A program made the position numbers and the translations under genes. The notes under the pieces are model-generated. The model worked only from the letters and a program-made list of their open reading frames with translations, was not told the origin of the DNA and ran no database searches. From the IMG/VR virus record IMGVR_UViG_3300028394_000034: DNA of 64,000 nt. The stretch is one strand, 5' to 3'. Positions 46,501-55,665 of the stretch are shown here, piece by piece (position 1 is the first letter of the stretch; each line of letters starts with the position of its first letter). This stretch comes from a virus.

Positions 46501-49500
46501 AAATCTTCAACATCGTCGTATTCGTAGCTCATGGTCAATCCTTCACAATGGTAGTAATGTAGAGCAGGCCAACATAGGACGCAACGAACGCAATCGCACT
46601 AAGCATCAATATACTCCTCTGGAATGAAATCGTCAACAGCACCCACCACTTCTGCCCAATCCCAAAAATTCACTTCCACGCTGGGATCGTCAATCGGCTC
46701 GACCATCGGTTCCACAATCCCCTTTTCGGCCATGTCGTTCAGAATGTCATTGATCTCGTCGAAGTTCAGCATGATTCTGTTTCCTATGGGTTTCCTTGTG
46801 ATGCTTCGATTATACACTTATCATCGACATATTGCAAGCCCCCCATAAAATTTCTTTCCTTATATTTTTGTAAGGTTCGCCGGCTATCGTTTGGCACGGC
46901 ATTTGCTGTTGGGGGGTTTTCGTAAAGTGTTGCAGGATAAGCACTTATGGCTCGCTGGGCCGGCCGAACTCGACGTAAGTCCTTATGAGTTAAGGAGATA
47001 CGTCAAGCCACACCCAAGAACAAAAGCTGTACCTAATAGAATATAATCACTAATTTTCATCATTTTCCTCCATATACATGATATGTGACATACTAGCAGA
47101 GAGTAAGATACCGACAATATAACCAAAAGCAACGCTAATAAAATCAAATTGATACATCCCTGTATCTCCAGTGTTATTGGGTCAATCCCCATATCCTACC
47201 CAGAACTCATCACCATTTTCATCTTTCATAAGAGTAAAGCCCCTAGACTTCATCCTCTCATATTCACCAAATCTCTGCCAGACTTCACAAATCGTTTCCA
47301 TACACTTGAGCATCATCCCCATAACCCACACAAACGGATATTGAATCATTCTCATAACCCTCTCCTATTCTGCACCATTCTACACTATTGTTATCGACCC
47401 GTCAAGGGCCCCGACTTTAGGCTGACTATACCCACCCTACCCAAATCCGTAGGATTAGCTCGGACAGTTATCTGTCCTTACTTGACAGACTCCATGTGTT
47501 CAAACGTGATGCACTTGTCCAGATAGATCGACCGATACCCCTGTTCGGCCTTGACCGTCAGGAGAACACGATCTCCAAACCCACGCACATTGACAACTTC
47601 ACCATTGACGATTTCACCGTTGTCATAATCCGCAAAAACAAAGTCACCGATTTTCATTGTTCTACCCTTTTCCTTTTCTCTTACTTGTTATATCGACATT
47701 ATACCAAAGGATATTTAGCTTGCAAGCGAAAAGTTTCCTTACAATTCCGTAAGGTTCGCGGAGAAAGTTTGGCACACCATTTGCTATAGAGACTCGACGT
47801 AAAGTGTTGGCACATAAGCACTTAGAGCAAATTCGGCCCGCAAAATTCGTCGTAAGTGCTTTAGCAGCAAGGGTTTACGACAAGTTTTTGAGTTTGCGCC
47901 TGTACACCCGTTTACCATCCACCCAAATGGGGAGGTATAGCTTAGGGTACAACTGAACATATGTATTCTTTACTAGACGCTCAGTCTCTAGTGTAACGTC
48001 GTACACTAGTATACAGTTGTTCATTCTTCCCCCTTGAAGCTGAACGGGCTGATTTCGAGATGAGCAACAACACCGTATTGCTTGGTCAGTTCCTCGACAC
48101 GTTCACGGCTACCCGGCTTACCAACCGGAACGATCATGGTATCCTCGCTACCGATCATCCGCGGGTCAACCTTTTCCATCTTGCTCTTGCCCATATTCTT
48201 CAATGCTGTCCGATTGAACTTCAGAACCTTTTCCACTTGGATCATCTCACCGTCGATGTCTTTCACTTCGGTAGGAATCGCCATACCAAGAAAGCACAGA
48301 CGGGCTTGACGCTTGGCAGCTTGAATGATCGGGAACTTGGTAGCCATGTTTCTTATCCTCTAGGGTTATCGTTCTCTTGTGAGTGTATTATACCAAACTG
48401 ATTTTCAATGTCCAGCAAAATCTTTCCTTACATTTTCGTAAGGTTTCTCGTCTCTCACACAGGAGTCGGATTCGACCGGTAGTATTTTGCCCACAGATCA
48501 TCGATCACGAACTGGACAACGCGATCATGTGAACCACGGCAGACATAGTAGCCCATGTGGATATCGAACAGAGCAAACGATCCATCCTCTTTCGGATGAA
48601 ACGTAAACCCACACTTGTAGGCGTAGGCGTTGATCTTACCCTTGACAGTCGAACTTTTCGGAGGCTTTCTCATTTTCATTCCTTCTTTCTTCTCTTGTTC
48701 TTATATCGACATTATACCATACCCTCTTTAGGTTGCAAGCAAAATCTTTCCTTACAAAGTCGTAAGGTTTGCCGGCCGTATTGGCACAGCATTTGCTATA
48801 TGCAATTATCATGCCAAACTTTTTTGGCACAGCATTTGCGTTACCGCTTGACGTAAAGTGTTGGTATATAAGCACTTATGGCAAATTCGGCCCCGAAAAT
48901 TCGTCGTAAGTCCTTTGGTATCAAGGGTTTACGTCGAATCTTTTGTACACTACTATACTACTGTATAGTCATCCCCTCGATATAGGGGAATACCTTACCA
49001 TTTGTATGTACGTTCCACTCTCCCTTTACTTGTCGAACATATCCCGGAATATACTGATTTATCCTATCCTTAGTCGTTGGGGTATACCATCCCCCTGTTC
49101 GTAGGGTATAGGTATTATCCTCATGGATTGTGACCACATATGTACTGTGGAGCATTACCCCTACGCTACCATCTGGCATAATCTCAGCATATGTATTGTT
49201 ACCAATCTTTCGGGATTGCCGGCCCGTCTTACCATGTACCATCTTTACTGCTTCAGTGTGTGTCATTTTGCTCACCAGCTTTCGCTGATCATCCCTAGTA
49301 ATTGTTGAAGAAACTGTAGAATCTCTTTTATGTTATATGTGGCATAATCCACATAACCATCGGGCAGATACCTAGACATAATTTTCTCAGTCGTTGTCGT
49401 GAAGGATGGAATGGATAGCGTTACCTACCTCGTGGGCAGTGTAAGACATGAAACCAGCAAAACTAATCAGGGCAAACAGCTGAACGTATTCGATAGGCGT

Positions 49501-51284
49501 AATCATTTAGGAGTCTCTCTTTCTTGTTTGTCTATTATACAGTATCGGCTATTCTCTTGTCAACCACTTAGAAATTCCAAATGCTTTTTGAATTATAGGG
49601 GAGCAGATCGTCAATCGGGAAGCCCGTAGCTTCTGCAACAATCTTTCGGGCTACCATCCAATCGGCGGCGGATGCTTGACCGATAAACTTGTGATCACCA
49701 TAGCTGAAGAAGTAAAACGTTTTCATTTTCTTTTTTCCTTTTCTCTTGTTTCTCTATTATACTCTATCGGTTATTGTCTTGTCAACTCTTGAACCTTGCA
49801 ATGTCGTAAGGTTCAGGCAAAATCCTCTTCACCAAAGAAATCATCGAGCCATTGGTCATCAGTCTCGATATGATCCTCAGTATCCCCCATAATGGGGTCC
49901 CAACCTTCCCCATCGTCAAGGCCCGGAATGTAGTCGGCTTCCATGCTATCGTCTGCAATGATCGTGCAATGCTCACCACACTGGGAGCAAATCTCATGAT
50001 CGACATTGCTTTCAGCATTGCAGCAATCGGAAACGTATAAGGTATTCTTTTCCATTTTCTTATCCTCTTTTCTTTCTTGTTCTCTTTTCTCTTATATCGA
50101 CATTATACAGTAGATTCTGAAACATTCAAGCAAAATCCAAAAAGATTTATGTCAAGAGATTTTGACAAAACTTTTCATCATTTTCTATACGATTGGCATA
50201 CCATTTGCTCTATGCAATTATCGTGCCAAACTTTTTTGGCATGAAATTTGCTGTGTGTTAAGATAGGTAAGATTGGGCCAAAAACGTGTCGTAAGTCATT
50301 GCAGCATAAGCACTTACGACGAGCCGGCCGCCGCGAATTTGACGTAAGTCCTTTATCCATAAGGGTTTGCATCAAGCCGGCCAGTATACAAGCGTATACC
50401 CTACAGAATAGAGTATAATTCCCCTACGATCACAAAGAACCTATACGCTAGAACAGTTAGCAGTATACAAGCGATCAGGTCTACAATTATCATGATACCA
50501 ATTCCTCTTTTGCTTGAAGTGATTCCACAAGAGCCCAACATTCATTGAACGTAATATGTCGGGCGATTACCACCCCACCATACCATACCTCATACCGATC
50601 CCCTGTCCGATTGGAAGTATTCCAGTAGATCATTTTCTTTTGCATGGCTTGTATCCTCTTTTCCGTATTGTATACGTTGTCCGTTTAGGTGTCAAGCGGT
50701 AGCCAAATAATTGCAAGAAACACACTTGTCGAGATACATTGAACGATATCCAACATTCTCGATTTTCAACGTGAACAGGAGTCGATACCCTTCCATATAC
50801 TTGACGCTCACGATTTCCCCAACAAACTTTTCACCCGTAGCATATTCGACCGAGACGTTGTATCCGATTTCCATTTTCATTTCCTTTTCTTTATCGTTCG
50901 TTTCTTGTTTCTGTATTATACTGATCGGCTTTTTTGTTGTCAATACCTTAGAAAATATTTTTACCGATAGATTCCATCGTTGATAACGTATCCGTCATTA
51001 TCCACTTCGATGAACTCTCCTTCATCACCCATCGGAAAGAAATATTCGATCATGTTTCGATTATTCTTCGCTTCGTCAAGCAGTTCTCCACCGATTGCAT
51101 ATTCGGTACCAACCAGAGTATCCAGTTCAATCGAATTGTTGTAGAGCACTTCGTTCAGTTCTTCCCGATTCATGATGATTTTCGTATTCTTCATTTTCTT
51201 ATCCTTTTCTTTCCTTGTTTTCTCTTGTGCTTTCATTATACAGTATTTATCGACCACTTCAATAGGAAAAATAAAAAAATCCAA
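40511..51284 (-). CDS. Early-region modules of small hypothetical proteins, each behind its own promoter
   Basis: Minus-strand ORFs at 40511, 41397, 41903, 42306, 42691, 42842, 43848, 44318, 44793, 45245, 46275, 46599, 48021, 48455, 48958, 49813, 50692 and 50961. Confidence 0.6.
41051..41434 (-). CDS. Ribosomal protein bL12 (L7/L12) C-terminal-domain-like protein
   Basis: RIPCIKAIRLHTGWGLKEAKDW matches the bL12 pattern KI.VIK.VR..TGLGLKEAK; also AEALLRELTTLG. Confidence 0.7.
   Translation of the reverse strand: MEFMIKIELSVRESLNMIANGCSLDMFDKIVCALEVALGVNQRRVVTITGGMNLDNRIPCIKAIRLHTGWGLKEAKDWSDYLVGGWKYDKWHPAPAGVKHSMTLKTPEAAEALLRELTTLGCEGFLS
43099..43171 (-). tRNA. Degenerate tRNA-like element; identity cannot be assigned
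   Basis: D-arm ACTC-AATTGGTA-GAGT and T-arm GCGGG-TTCAAGT-CCCGT are intact. The anticodon arm CCACA-CTATA-TGTGG lacks U33 and a 7-nt loop, and the acceptor stem is bulged. Confidence 0.6.
43172..43492 (-). ncRNA. Candidate ~320-nt structured non-coding RNA
   Basis: No ORF in the track; consensus sigma70 promoter directly upstream; many hairpins including a 10-bp AAGCAGATAG/CTATCTGCTT stem. Confidence 0.55.
45128..49811. promoter_or_regulatory. 7 copies of the palindrome CCTTAC-N6-GTAAGG upstream of -35 boxes
   Basis: Starts at 45128, 46163, 46858, 47737, 48426, 48750 and 49794. Confidence 0.75.
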
Positions 51285-51334
51285 AATATATTTTCATGCC
51301 AAATAACTTTTTTCTTTTTGGCACACCACTTGCG
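46891..51334. promoter_or_regulatory. Nine sigma54 (RpoN) -24/-12 boxes
   Basis: TTGGCAY-N5-TTGC with GG-N10-GC spacing. Plus strand: 46891, 47769, 48781, 48824, 50193, 50236, 51318. Minus strand: 48801-48817 and 50213-50229. Confidence 0.8.
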
Positions 51335-51674
51335 TTAAAACTTGACGTAAACCGTTGGCACATAAGCACTTACGACGAATTTTCGGGAGAGAGATCATCA
51401 TAAGTTGTTTATTTTCATATACTTACAGCTTAGGGGGTTTTTTTGTTTTAAATAGGCTAGGTAAATTGGGGAAGAAAAACCTGGGGTGGTCCAAACATAG
51501 TAAGCGACCTCCAGTATAATTGGCCAGTTTAATGACCACTTATTCTTTATTATATACTGATCCCATTAATCATATATCAAAAGCCCCCAATCTTTCTAGA
51601 ATATCATCGATCAACAGGGGGTATTTTACCAGCTAATTGAAAAACTAGAACGACCCATCTCTGATCCATAAAAT

Positions 51675-51708
51675 AAAAAAAAGAGGCAAGCATTTCTGCC
51701 TGCCCCTT
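51675..51708 (-). terminator. Rho-independent terminator
   Basis: AGGGGCAGGC-AGAAAT-GCTTGCCTCT followed by a T-tract. Confidence 0.75.
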
Positions 51709-51735
51709 TTAAAAGCCAGTAAGCTTTGATAGATT

Positions 51736-52462: not shown

Positions 52463-53155
52463 ATGACCAACAAAAAACCGACAAAATCGACCAAACCTAA
52501 AATATCAGATAAAAATAATAGTGATTTACCAAATGGCGTTTCTCAAGAAGAATTTCTCATAGTATTGGATAACATAAGCAAAAGACTTGGCCACAAATTC
52601 CGCTTCGGTTATCACGACTTTGATGATATGAAACAACAAGCTGCCATATTCGCTATGGAAGGCTTGGAAAAATACGATAATAGTCGCCCATTAGAGAATT
52701 TCTTATGGACCCACGTAAGAAATCGCCTCTTTAATTTTAAACGTAATAATTATCAAAGGCCCGACAAACCCTGTTTTACCTGTCCATTATTTGATAAAGC
52801 CTATAAATGCTCTAACAATCAGTGTTCAAAATACACAGATAAGAGTGAGTGTGAATTATATTCATCTTGGGCAACACGAAATGATGCCAAGAAGAATATT
52901 ATGCAACCTTCCCATATCGAACATGACATCCACCACTGCAAAAACCAAAATTTCACCACATTAATTCAAAATCAAGAGATTATTAAATTTCTAGATCAGA
53001 ATATCCAGTCAGAACATAGAGAATGTTATCTCAAATTGAAGCATGGACACAAAATTCCCAAGCAACAGCTTAATAAATTACAAAAACATATCTCAGAACT
53101 AATGGAGAAAAAAGAGTGGCAACAAATAACGCCCCCCGAAAACGAGGACAATTAA
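52463..53155 (+). CDS. Sigma-70 family (ECF-like) phage sigma factor with a Cys-rich insert
   Basis: Region 2-like DDMKQQAAIFAMEGLEKYDNSRPLENFLWTHVRNRLFNFKR; first large gene of the late module. Confidence 0.65.
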   Translation: MTNKKPTKSTKPKISDKNNSDLPNGVSQEEFLIVLDNISKRLGHKFRFGYHDFDDMKQQAAIFAMEGLEKYDNSRPLENFLWTHVRNRLFNFKRNNYQRPDKPCFTCPLFDKAYKCSNNQCSKYTDKSECELYSSWATRNDAKKNIMQPSHIEHDIHHCKNQNFTTLIQNQEIIKFLDQNIQSEHRECYLKLKHGHKIPKQQLNKLQKHISELMEKKEWQQITPPENEDN

Positions 53156-53946
53156 GCTTAGAAGAAGAAAAGTTTATAAGAGACCATTTTGACAAGTTAT
53201 CTATTGAACAAATCTCAGAAGTTTTAAATCGAAATCCCCCTCCAATCAAAAGATATATAGAGGAGAGCCGATTAACTGTACCCACCGAAGAAAAGAACGA
53301 CAATGCTTTCTTAAAACAAAAACTCCACACCAAAACATTCTGGACCGAAGTTCAAAGACAATTTGATGAAGAGTCTGGGGAGTTAGCCTATTTTGAAGAT
53401 ACTTGGGTTGGCCTAATTAAACAGTTTAGAGAGGATGTTCTACCCGCCGAAGAACTTCAAATTAAACAATTCATCACTATAGATATTCTTATCAATAGAA
53501 GTATGAAAGAACGTAAACGTCATATTAGCGAAACCGACAAGCTACAACGTTTAGTTGATAAAGAATATGATAAGTCTGAAGACCAAAGAGATGCCGCCAG
53601 ACTCATGAATTTAGAAACTCAATTAAGTTTTGCCCGTAATAGTATAGCCAATTATACAAATGAATATACTAAACTGCTTAACGAACAACAAAAAATAAGC
53701 AAAGACTTAAAGGCCACACGAGAGCAAAGAATTAAAAGAATCGAAGATGGCAAAAGCTCATGGACCGGATTAATAAGAATGTTAGAGGACGAAGTTATTA
53801 GAGAACGTGAAGGCCGTGAGATGGAAATATTAGCATTAGCCACCGACAAAGCCAAGAAAACTCTTCAAGGATATCACTCATACGAAGATCGAACATTAGA
53901 CCGCCCCTTTTTAACCCCCGACAGTGTAGAGGACAATAATGAATAA
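53116..53946 (+). CDS. Helical hypothetical protein, possible terminase small subunit
   Basis: HTH-like N-terminus, coiled coils and position upstream of terL; the function is inferred from position only. Confidence 0.35.
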   Translation: MATNNAPRKRGQLSLEEEKFIRDHFDKLSIEQISEVLNRNPPPIKRYIEESRLTVPTEEKNDNAFLKQKLHTKTFWTEVQRQFDEESGELAYFEDTWVGLIKQFREDVLPAEELQIKQFITIDILINRSMKERKRHISETDKLQRLVDKEYDKSEDQRDAARLMNLETQLSFARNSIANYTNEYTKLLNEQQKISKDLKATREQRIKRIEDGKSSWTGLIRMLEDEVIREREGREMEILALATDKAKKTLQGYHSYEDRTLDRPFLTPDSVEDNNE

Positions 53947-54946: not shown

Positions 54947-55202
54947 TGATCCAACATATAAAAAATGGCGCAAAGCTGTATATTCTAGAGATGGTCACAA
55001 GTGTCAGTGGCCAGGATGTTCAATTAGGAAAAAGTTAAATGCTCATCATATAAAAACTTGGGCTGAATTTCCAGCATTAAGATACTGTACTCAAAATGGT
55101 ATAACATTATGTTATAATCATCATAAAATGATTAAAGGAATGGAAAGCATCTATGAGGGCATCTTTTTAAAGATTGCAAATGAAAATGACAAATCACTCT
55201 GA
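54909..55202 (+). CDS. HNH endonuclease
   Basis: RDGHKCQ...LNAHHIK...NGITLCYNHH. Confidence 0.85.
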   Translation: MTLRHIQMLRNFNDPTYKKWRKAVYSRDGHKCQWPGCSIRKKLNAHHIKTWAEFPALRYCTQNGITLCYNHHKMIKGMESIYEGIFLKIANENDKSL

Positions 55203-55665
55203 CTTTACCATCATAATAGATACCCGCGAACAACAACCGTGGACTTTTGATAATTATGCTACAGCCCACAAGAAGCTGGATACTGGGGACTATAGTATTG
55301 AGGGACTAGAAACAATATTAGGCATCGAAAGAAAAAAGAGCGTTAGCGAGTTTGCAAACAATATCATAGAAAGCAGATTTAAAGATGTTGTATTCAGAAT
55401 GAGTCAGCTTAAATACTCATTTTTATTACTTGAATTTGACTTAGAAGATATTCTTATTTATCCAGTAGGATCAACAGTTCCTAAGAAGATGTGGGACAAA
55501 ATTAAAATATCTCCAGCCTTTATTCTTAAACATATTCTAGAGTTGCAGTTAAATCATAACATCAAAGTTTTATTTTGCGGAGATTCTGATAGCGCAAGTA
55601 AAATGGCAGAACATATTCTTAAAAAGGTTCATTACATTGAAAGATTTACAAAAAAAGACATTTGA
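55174..55665 (+). CDS. ERCC4-domain nuclease
   Basis: IIIDTREQ...LDTGDY...IERKKSVSE. Confidence 0.85.
   Translation: MQMKMTNHSDFTIIIDTREQQPWTFDNYATAHKKLDTGDYSIEGLETILGIERKKSVSEFANNIIESRFKDVVFRMSQLKYSFLLLEFDLEDILIYPVGSTVPKKMWDKIKISPAFILKHILELQLNHNIKVLFCGDSDSASKMAEHILKKVHYIERFTKKDI

Follow-up and report, generated by a model that had tools for sequence, protein, structure and literature searches.

The virus record IMGVR_UViG_3300028394_000034 of the IMG/VR database represents a phage genome of 199,884 bp with terminal repeats, which is estimated to be complete. The stretch analyzed here (64,000 nucleotides, in the following referred to as the window) is the reverse complement of a part of this record, and the element in question is a cluster of boxes resembling the −24/−12 recognition sequence of the bacterial sigma factor sigma-54 (RpoN). 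Nine exact copies of the box TGGCAY-N5-TTGC were found in five consecutive spacers of the early region between positions 46,892 and 51,333 (4.4 kb), as had been described in the first-pass annotation of this DNA, and the rest of the genome contains one further match. For the strict form TGGCAC-N5-TTGC, six matches were obtained compared to 0.08 expected from shuffled sequences, and the form TGGCA-N6-TTGC was found nine times exactly. GG and GC are separated by exactly 10 bp in all nine boxes, which is the sigma-54 spacing, and versions of the box with N4 or N6 spacing were absent from the whole genome. Seven boxes lie on the plus strand (starting at 46892, 47770, 48782, 48825, 50194, 50237, and 51319) and two on the minus strand (48802-48816 and 50214-50228), arranged as follows:

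46892-46906, plus strand: single sigma-54-type box TGGCACGGCATTTGC, 14 bp before a CGTAAAG arm
47770-47784, plus strand: single box TGGCACACCATTTGC, 13 bp before a CGTAAAG arm
48782-48839, both strands: triplet of boxes at 48782-48796 (plus), 48802-48816 (minus), and 48825-48839 (plus)
50194-50251, both strands: second triplet with boxes at 50194 (plus), 50214 (minus), and 50237 (plus), offsets as in the first triplet
51290-51303, minus strand: degenerate half box TTTGGCATGAAAAT, in which the −24 part is kept and TTGC is absent
51319-51333, plus strand: single box TGGCACACCACTTGC, closest to the strand switch

Over 60 bp, the two triplets have 87% identity, and both show the offsets 0/+20/+43, in agreement with the first-pass annotation. 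In each of them, the first and second box converge to make up a 36-bp mirror site of the form TTGGCAY-N5-TTGC-N4-GCAA-N5-RTGCCAA. The N5 arms of this site are Watson–Crick complementary at only 31%, which identifies it as a double-stranded protein site rather than a hairpin; a reading as an RNA or DNA hairpin was also rejected because the stems are conserved in sequence without covariation and have no match in Rfam. Since the early genes run on the minus strand in this region, the plus boxes are antisense to the gene flow, as stated previously.

The boxes are directed towards hairpins. Fifteen double palindromes punctuate the early region, of which only the five nearest to the strand switch carry boxes, ten of the fifteen being without. 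The elements faced by the boxes are the following:

46917-47010, unstranded: double palindrome with four CGTAA-type arms, faced by the box at 46892
47794-47888, unstranded: double palindrome, the right hairpin of which is preceded by an A-tract and followed by a T-tract (shape of a bidirectional terminator)
48848-48941, unstranded: double palindrome faced by the box at 48825, with the right hairpin between A and T tracts
50287-50376, unstranded: double palindrome, 38 bp after the box at 50237
51342-51381, unstranded: half element (one hairpin and TTTT) faced by the box at 51319
48750-48769, minus strand: CCTTAC-N6-GTAAGG hairpin followed by a T-rich tail, with copies at 46858, 47737, 48426, and 49794

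The distance between TTGC and the first CGTAA arm is 12–14 bp for the boxes at 46892, 47770, 48825, and 51319 (38 bp for the box at 50237), so that a start 12 nt after the GC falls 0–3 nt before the double palindrome; the distance of 1–3 bp given earlier for these four units was thus closely reproduced. All seven plus boxes aim against the gene flow and towards the double palindromes, whereas transcripts from the two minus boxes would reach a T-tailed hairpin within about 20–40 nt, the copy at 48750 being located approximately 20 nt past the predicted start of the minus box at 48802. A T-run follows the element in only two to three of the five units. The position expected for a sigma-54 promoter, namely upstream of and co-directional with a gene or RNA, was not found for the boxes of this phage. 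In 13 related loci, most boxes likewise face either their mirror partner or a phage-specific double hairpin. In these relatives, the hairpin begins only 3–6 nt past TTGC and is GC-rich in some; a GC-rich stem across the melting region represents a poor design for a working promoter. The stems differ between the relatives (CTGCCA/TGGCAG, C6/G6, and CGTAAAG/CTTTACG), and the layout of hairpin, GC-rich linker, and hairpin is retained. Loci L007 (2055-4600), L006, L054, and L065, for example, feature a GC-rich GGCCGGCC-like linker between the hairpins, with stems of the types CTGCCATTTTGGCAG, CCCCCC...GGGGGG, and CGTAAAG...CTTTACG. Changing stems in a constant layout would correspond to conservation at the level of structure or, alternatively, to concerted evolution within each genome.

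To evaluate the prevalence of the mirror site, IMG/VR was scanned for the exact pattern. The site was detected in at least 120 contigs, this figure being a lower bound, and a scrambled palindrome of the same composition yielded no match. In 596 Gb of bacterial genomes, the mirror site was present in nine stretches only, namely in five small contigs of three Leptospira isolates, in three contigs of two metagenome-assembled genomes (Clostridia and Pseudobdellovibrionaceae), and in one contig of a Burkholderiaceae metagenome-assembled genome, which is itself an IMG/VR contig. The small contigs from the assemblies of the three Leptospira isolates (L121, L122, L125, L127, and L128) contain several boxes in addition to mirror sites; they probably represent a Leptospira phage or plasmid and would then offer a cultivable, sigma-54-bearing host. 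In the 129 loci fetched (1.09 Mb), 587 single boxes were counted compared to about four expected, roughly 300 of them outside the palindromes used as seed. The carriers comprise small phages related to HMO-2011-type pelagiphages, a group of small phages with a large terminase (TerL) of 416 amino acids, and relatives of this phage with genomes of 120–223 kb. These carriers are very diverse, and the identical motif occurs in phages with a GC content between 35% and 57% and with unrelated neighboring genes.

There is essentially one cluster per complete phage genome, and in seven out of seven complete small genomes, it is located exactly at the main strand switch between the divergent arms. The arrays of the small phages precede a small-terminase-like gene and TerL by a few hundred bp; a consensus sigma-70 promoter is found in the interval, and the DnaA-box-like sequence TTATNCACA sometimes flanks the arrays. 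Small podovirus-like contigs (L041:313-456, L052:7738-7881, and L020:500-600) contain two to four mirror sites with an exact period of 54 bp and conserved 18-bp spacers; these arrays are flanked by the DnaA-box-like sequences TTATTCACA / TGTGGATAA and have the late operon (TerS-like gene, endolysin, TerL, and portal) on one side and an opposite arm on the other. Boxes occur singly as well as in convergent, divergent, and tandem arrangement, with gaps of 3–8 bp for convergent pairs. The N4 mirror pair is the commonest form, but N4 is also the form with which the search was seeded. Neighboring boxes are 19–27 bp apart, and the longer distances increase in steps of roughly 11 bp (23, 35, 45, and 55 for divergent boxes; 26, 38, and 54 for tandem boxes). 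The two starts predicted for the 36-bp mirror site are 19 bp apart and directed outward.

Bacterial enhancer-dependent sigma-54 promoters of the glnAp2, nifH, and pspA type feature the consensus YTGGCACGR-N3-TTGCW. Among 234 boxes outside the search seed, positions not specified in the search showed marked preferences, with Y before TGG in 89%, R after TGGCAY in 94%, R at the next position in 77%, and W after TTGC in 88% of the cases. These preferences agree with the published sigma-54 consensus TGGCA(T/C)(G/A)nnnnTTGCA (PMC11704786). In 72 near-miss copies within the arrays, deviations were found mainly at T-15 (31 copies) and C-23 (13 copies, mostly to T), and also at T-26, whereas G-25 was never affected and G-13 (2), G-24 (6), and C-12 (6) only rarely. 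The change of C-23 to T is typical of nifH-type promoters. The occurrence of single, convergent, divergent, and tandem boxes fits an asymmetric, monomeric reader. The assignment of the boxes to sigma-54 made in the first-pass annotation is therefore strengthened as far as specificity is concerned, since flanks, mismatch tolerance, and the autonomy of the boxes in every orientation all appear to support it; judged from these sequence features, the sigma-54-type identity of the site seems well supported.

No protein family common to the box neighborhoods was found across the phage groups, and hidden Markov models (HMMs) of local candidates gave empty results in the other groups. The same motif in unrelated phages, together with the lack of a shared neighboring protein, indicates a universal host reader, and the simplest one would be a host factor with invariant specificity across phyla. 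To our knowledge, sigma-54 is the one known factor with the specificity of the box. The neighboring sigma-like gene and the D5-like regulator are unlikely readers, as they are confined to the large-phage lineage and have no HMM relatives in the box-bearing small phages. A reading of TTTGCT as a T4 MotA box was rejected by eye, because the letters after TGCT are unlike TGCTT, and the −10-like TAAAGT that belongs to this reading is part of the palindrome, which exists without boxes as well. The search for an AAA+ enhancer-binding protein that had been suggested with the first-pass annotation was run on the whole genome and on 43 other box-bearing viral records (nine complete), and neither Sigma54_activat (PF00158) nor Sigma54_DBD was found in any of them. 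The actinophage marker WhiB and the cyanophage marker psbA were also absent from these 44 records, which thus give no sign of hosts without sigma-54. Sigma54_DBD is encoded in five of the six bacterial assemblies in which the mirror site occurs. As indicators of the host, these findings lend weak support to sigma-54 as the reader.

Nine cultured HMO-2011-type phages infecting SAR11, Roseobacter, and SAR116 hosts contained no mirror site and boxes at chance level only. Uncultured relatives of Pelagibacter phage HTVC115P (TerL 64–66% identical for G006; GC content 41–43%) carry exactly one mirror site upstream of the terS-terL operon. The loci L130-L132 (G006) and L144-L146 (G034), compared to MN698247 and relatives, represent a natural contrast of gain and loss that could reveal the host factor. 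RpoN has been reported to be absent from a freshwater SAR11 strain (PMC12113158).

With regard to the genomic setting, the GC content amounts to 34.6% overall compared to about 43% in the early region. Between approximately 34.8 and 51.4 kb of the window, small minus-strand genes are each preceded by their own near-consensus sigma-70 promoter and Shine–Dalgarno site, the minus-strand early promoters scoring 10–12 of 12 against sigma-70. The strand switch of the genome follows at 51.4–52.4 kb, and beyond it, genes for an ECF-like sigma factor, a T5 D5-like regulator, a sugar dehydratase, an ERCC4 nuclease, TerL, and further large head-region proteins are located. The minimum of the cumulative GC skew was determined at window position 53,339 and that of the AT skew at 51,448, and the box cluster adjoins both. 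Further features of the setting are:

48711-48738, minus strand: sigma-70 early promoter TTGCAA-16-TATAAT of the next cassette, with equivalents at 46809-46837, 47698-47725, 50102-50129, and 51235-51262
52463-53946, plus strand: first genes of the opposite arm, encoding an ECF-like sigma factor with a 4-Cys motif (52463-53155) and a T5 D5-like regulator (53116-53946)

The genes for the ECF-like sigma factor and the D5-like regulator are kept beside the box cluster in 12–14 related loci. The ECF-like protein (230 amino acids) matches Sigma70_r2 / ECF-sigma weakly, and its 4-Cys motif (C104, C107, C121, and C130) is invariant. The D5-like protein (276 amino acids), which matches phrog_323, 'transcriptional regulator, D5-like', possibly binds DNA through its N-terminal region and also contains a long helical part. 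Judged from their products, the two genes resemble a pair for late transcription of the phage. A gene-free stretch at window positions 51337-51720 separates the last box from a strong terminator on the minus strand (51679-51710) and contains the half palindrome and a GGGGG-T7 tract; a segment of roughly 100 bp therein (51432-51541) is conserved at 73–78% in L001 and L066. At 55174-55665, the gene for the ERCC4-type nuclease and the beginning of the large terminase gene overlap, and the nuclease gene takes the place in which a small terminase is usually located. In the cultured-phage collection, no DNA match to the region and no protein match to the sigma-like gene or the portal were obtained, and the sole matches to TerL were at 22–25% identity. 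The sugar-dehydratase gene was uninformative as an indicator of the host.

Among the bacterial sigma factors, sigma-54 alone combines tight DNA binding with silence until an ATPase acts: its holoenzyme forms stable closed complexes, and the opening of the DNA requires an AAA+ activator. We infer the reader of the boxes and their function from their presence and enrichment, their specificity to phages, the match to the consensus, the placement at a single locus, the lack of activator genes, and the orientation towards hairpins. The likeliest reader would be the host sigma-54 RNA polymerase holoenzyme. Because no activator is encoded by the phage and the boxes are aimed at hairpins or terminators instead of genes, the docked polymerase would remain mostly silent or give rise to short, terminated RNAs only. 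The module would then not be an ordinary gene promoter but may act as a sink retaining host sigma-54 polymerase on the replicating phage DNA or, alternatively, as a protein bookend at the cassette borders beside the strand switch. Mirror pairs and triplets pack the sites at a phasing of about 11 bp, and at the shortest spacing, neighboring holoenzymes would be expected to be mutually exclusive. On this basis, we tentatively favor, with less than even confidence, that host sigma-54 polymerase docks here, stays largely silent, and functions as a sink for sigma-54 or, at the first early cassettes, as a boundary. Three roles had been put forward in the first-pass annotation (small RNAs of the palindrome, a decoy or roadblock, and coupling of early expression to a host sigma-54 signal). 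Among these, the decoy or roadblock fits best, given that no activating ATPase was found in the 44 records, all boxes of this phage face hairpins or terminators, and the melting region in the relatives appears poor.

Several observations weigh against silent docking of host polymerase. Site spacings of 19–27 bp and the phasing of about 11 bp would suit a smaller, co-occupying protein better than the holoenzyme with its footprint of approximately 35 bp. One cluster per genome at the strand switch is not predicted by a pure sink and resembles a control, origin, or packaging site, and a relative of 223 kb possesses a single mirror site, which would make a weak sink. The cultured phages RB49, T5, and YuA, whose hosts bear sigma-54, contain no clusters and boxes at chance level only. 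Moreover, unpaired boxes across all loci are co-directional with the next open reading frame in 55 of 73 cases (55 vs. 18), mostly 25–200 nt upstream of it, so some phages may use unpaired boxes as true promoters.

The alternative that survives best, although we regard it as somewhat less likely than docking of sigma-54 polymerase, is that another phage or host protein with the same bipartite specificity reads the boxes, single boxes being half sites, mirror pairs full sites, and the phased array at the central control region an operator, origin, or packaging site. The single cluster per genome, its place at the strand switch in all seven complete small genomes and beside the skew minimum here, and neighbor distances too close for two holoenzymes are all in line with this possibility. 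The same applies to the virtual absence of the mirror arrangement from bacterial genomes, to the arrays just upstream of the small-terminase-like gene and TerL in many small phages, sometimes with DnaA-box-like flanks, and to the near-consensus sigma-70 promoters that already serve the flanking genes. However, no neighboring protein family is common to the phage groups, and the motif is identical in phages across the whole range of GC contents, whereas the specificities of phage repressors, initiators, and TerS proteins normally diverge. Furthermore, the match to sigma-54 extends to the four unsearched positions and to the mismatch profile, and the variable orientation and gap (3–8 bp convergent, tandem, and divergent) would suit a rigid dimer poorly. 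With regard to an iteron origin or a terminase recognition site, the cluster is unique and phased and often lies upstream of a TerS-like gene, yet the neighboring genes vary by group while the motif remains constant.

Less probable still is the use of the boxes as productive, enhancer-dependent promoters, tied to a host sigma-54 signal through a host activator or an unrecognized phage activator. Plus boxes would then give rise to double-hairpin RNAs of approximately 100 nt or to RNAs reaching antisense into early genes at their 3' ends, and the minus boxes would contribute to early transcription. The predicted starts immediately before the double palindrome in four units would suit this function, and for the units at 47794 and 48848, a T-run after the second hairpin would define an RNA of approximately 100 nt (fold z-scores of −2.3 and −3.7). 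In addition, the double palindrome lies at about −70 to −125 upstream of both minus boxes, which is a classical enhancer distance, and the co-directional unpaired boxes of other phages as well as the reliance of phage YuA, with its three '-24/-12' promoter-trap fragments, on host sigma-54 point in the same direction. Nevertheless, the activator gene is missing from this genome and the 43 other box-bearing records, and in the relatives, the melting region would fall inside the stem of a hairpin that is GC-rich in some. T-runs are restricted to two or three units, ten palindromes exist without a box, transcripts from the minus boxes would soon reach a T-tailed hairpin, and Rfam gave no match. 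Small RNAs of the palindrome, as proposed in the first-pass annotation, are accordingly conceivable for the two or three units with a T-run after the second hairpin, but not as a general feature of the relatives.

Finally, it is highly improbable that the boxes are passive passengers of mobile cassette borders resembling PeSLs (promoter-early stem-loops), moved by recombination without a reader of their own. Small cassettes, all of them with a stem-loop and a sigma-70 promoter, do form a mosaic in this region and are reshuffled in relatives at 70–80% identity, and PeSL cassettes of T4-type phages drive such shuffling (PMC2839356). However, only roughly 11 core positions of the boxes are conserved while spacers and flanks are free to vary, which argues for selection on a binding site instead of recent copying. 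Moreover, small phages that are unrelated and devoid of such cassettes have an identical core, and RB49, the type phage of the PeSLs, lacks the cluster.

Returning to docking of host sigma-54 polymerase, a broader claim appears possible, and we put it forward with additional reserve: the mirror-paired, phased sigma-54 sites of unrelated aquatic phages may constitute a dedicated device that captures host sigma-54 RNA polymerase at one control locus, either as a decoy shutting down host sigma-54 responses or as a new, activator-independent use of sigma-54. We know of no published system featuring sigma-54 decoy DNA or activator-independent use of sigma-54 of this kind. A module present in this number of viral contigs and nearly absent from bacteria would indicate a widespread, unstudied phage–host interaction at the level of transcription, by which sigma-54 might be sequestered, gene cassettes insulated, or both directions fired conditionally. 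In addition, sigma-54 could be titrated with the 36-bp site as a compact synthetic tool.

Among known systems, the PeSL cassettes described by Arbiol et al. 2010 (PMC2839356) resemble the early region in that each small accessory gene is enclosed by a strong sigma-70 promoter and a terminator of the stem-loop type, and that these genes are shuffled among relatives. Here, a strong sigma-70 promoter and stem-loop were likewise found around small open reading frames, together with the hairpin families D1 and D8 and mosaic matches to relatives. However, PeSLs were described without a sigma-54-type box (PMC2839356), whereas in this phage, the box is an extra element in five of 15 borders, and RB49 has none beyond chance.

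The use of sigma-54 by phages is described as rare, with the Pseudomonas phage YuA as the example, the development of which depends on host sigma-54 (Ceyssens et al. 2008, via PMC5053324 and PMC10914365). The remark in the first-pass annotation that phages do not typically use sigma-54 is hence right in general but not absolute (PMC5053324). YuA, a virulent phage, shares host sigma-54-type sites with the phage studied here, and its record NC_010116 lists three promoter-trap fragments annotated '-24/-12 consensus', which, unlike the boxes of this phage, occur singly at scattered positions of the late region and in the same direction as the genes. In the YuA genome, no exact TGGCAY-N5-TTGC match, no cluster, and no mirror pair were found. 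A literature search on sigma-54 boxes in phages returned YuA and P7 of Xp10 only, and no paper on mirror-paired or arrayed sigma-54 sites in phages.

Symmetric bidirectional promoters, reportedly described by Warman et al. 2021, fire divergent starts from one symmetric core based on the symmetry of the sigma-70 −10 element. The mirror site is comparable in having outward predicted starts 19 bp apart and, in small phages, a position between divergent arms. It differs in being of the sigma-54 type, with transcription from it being predicted only, and we know of no sigma-54 case of a symmetric bidirectional promoter.

Close counterparts are also bacterial RpoN promoters, with which the boxes agree in their core, in the strict GG-N10-GC spacing, in the preferences at the flanks, and in the variants that are tolerated (TGGTAY, CGGCAY, and a weak T-15). 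They differ from these promoters in that no phage-encoded activator or recognizable upstream activator site was found. Furthermore, the phage sites are organized as mirror-paired, overlapping, and phased arrays, an arrangement with nine occurrences in the bacterial DNA searched, and the boxes of this phage face hairpins, antisense to its genes.

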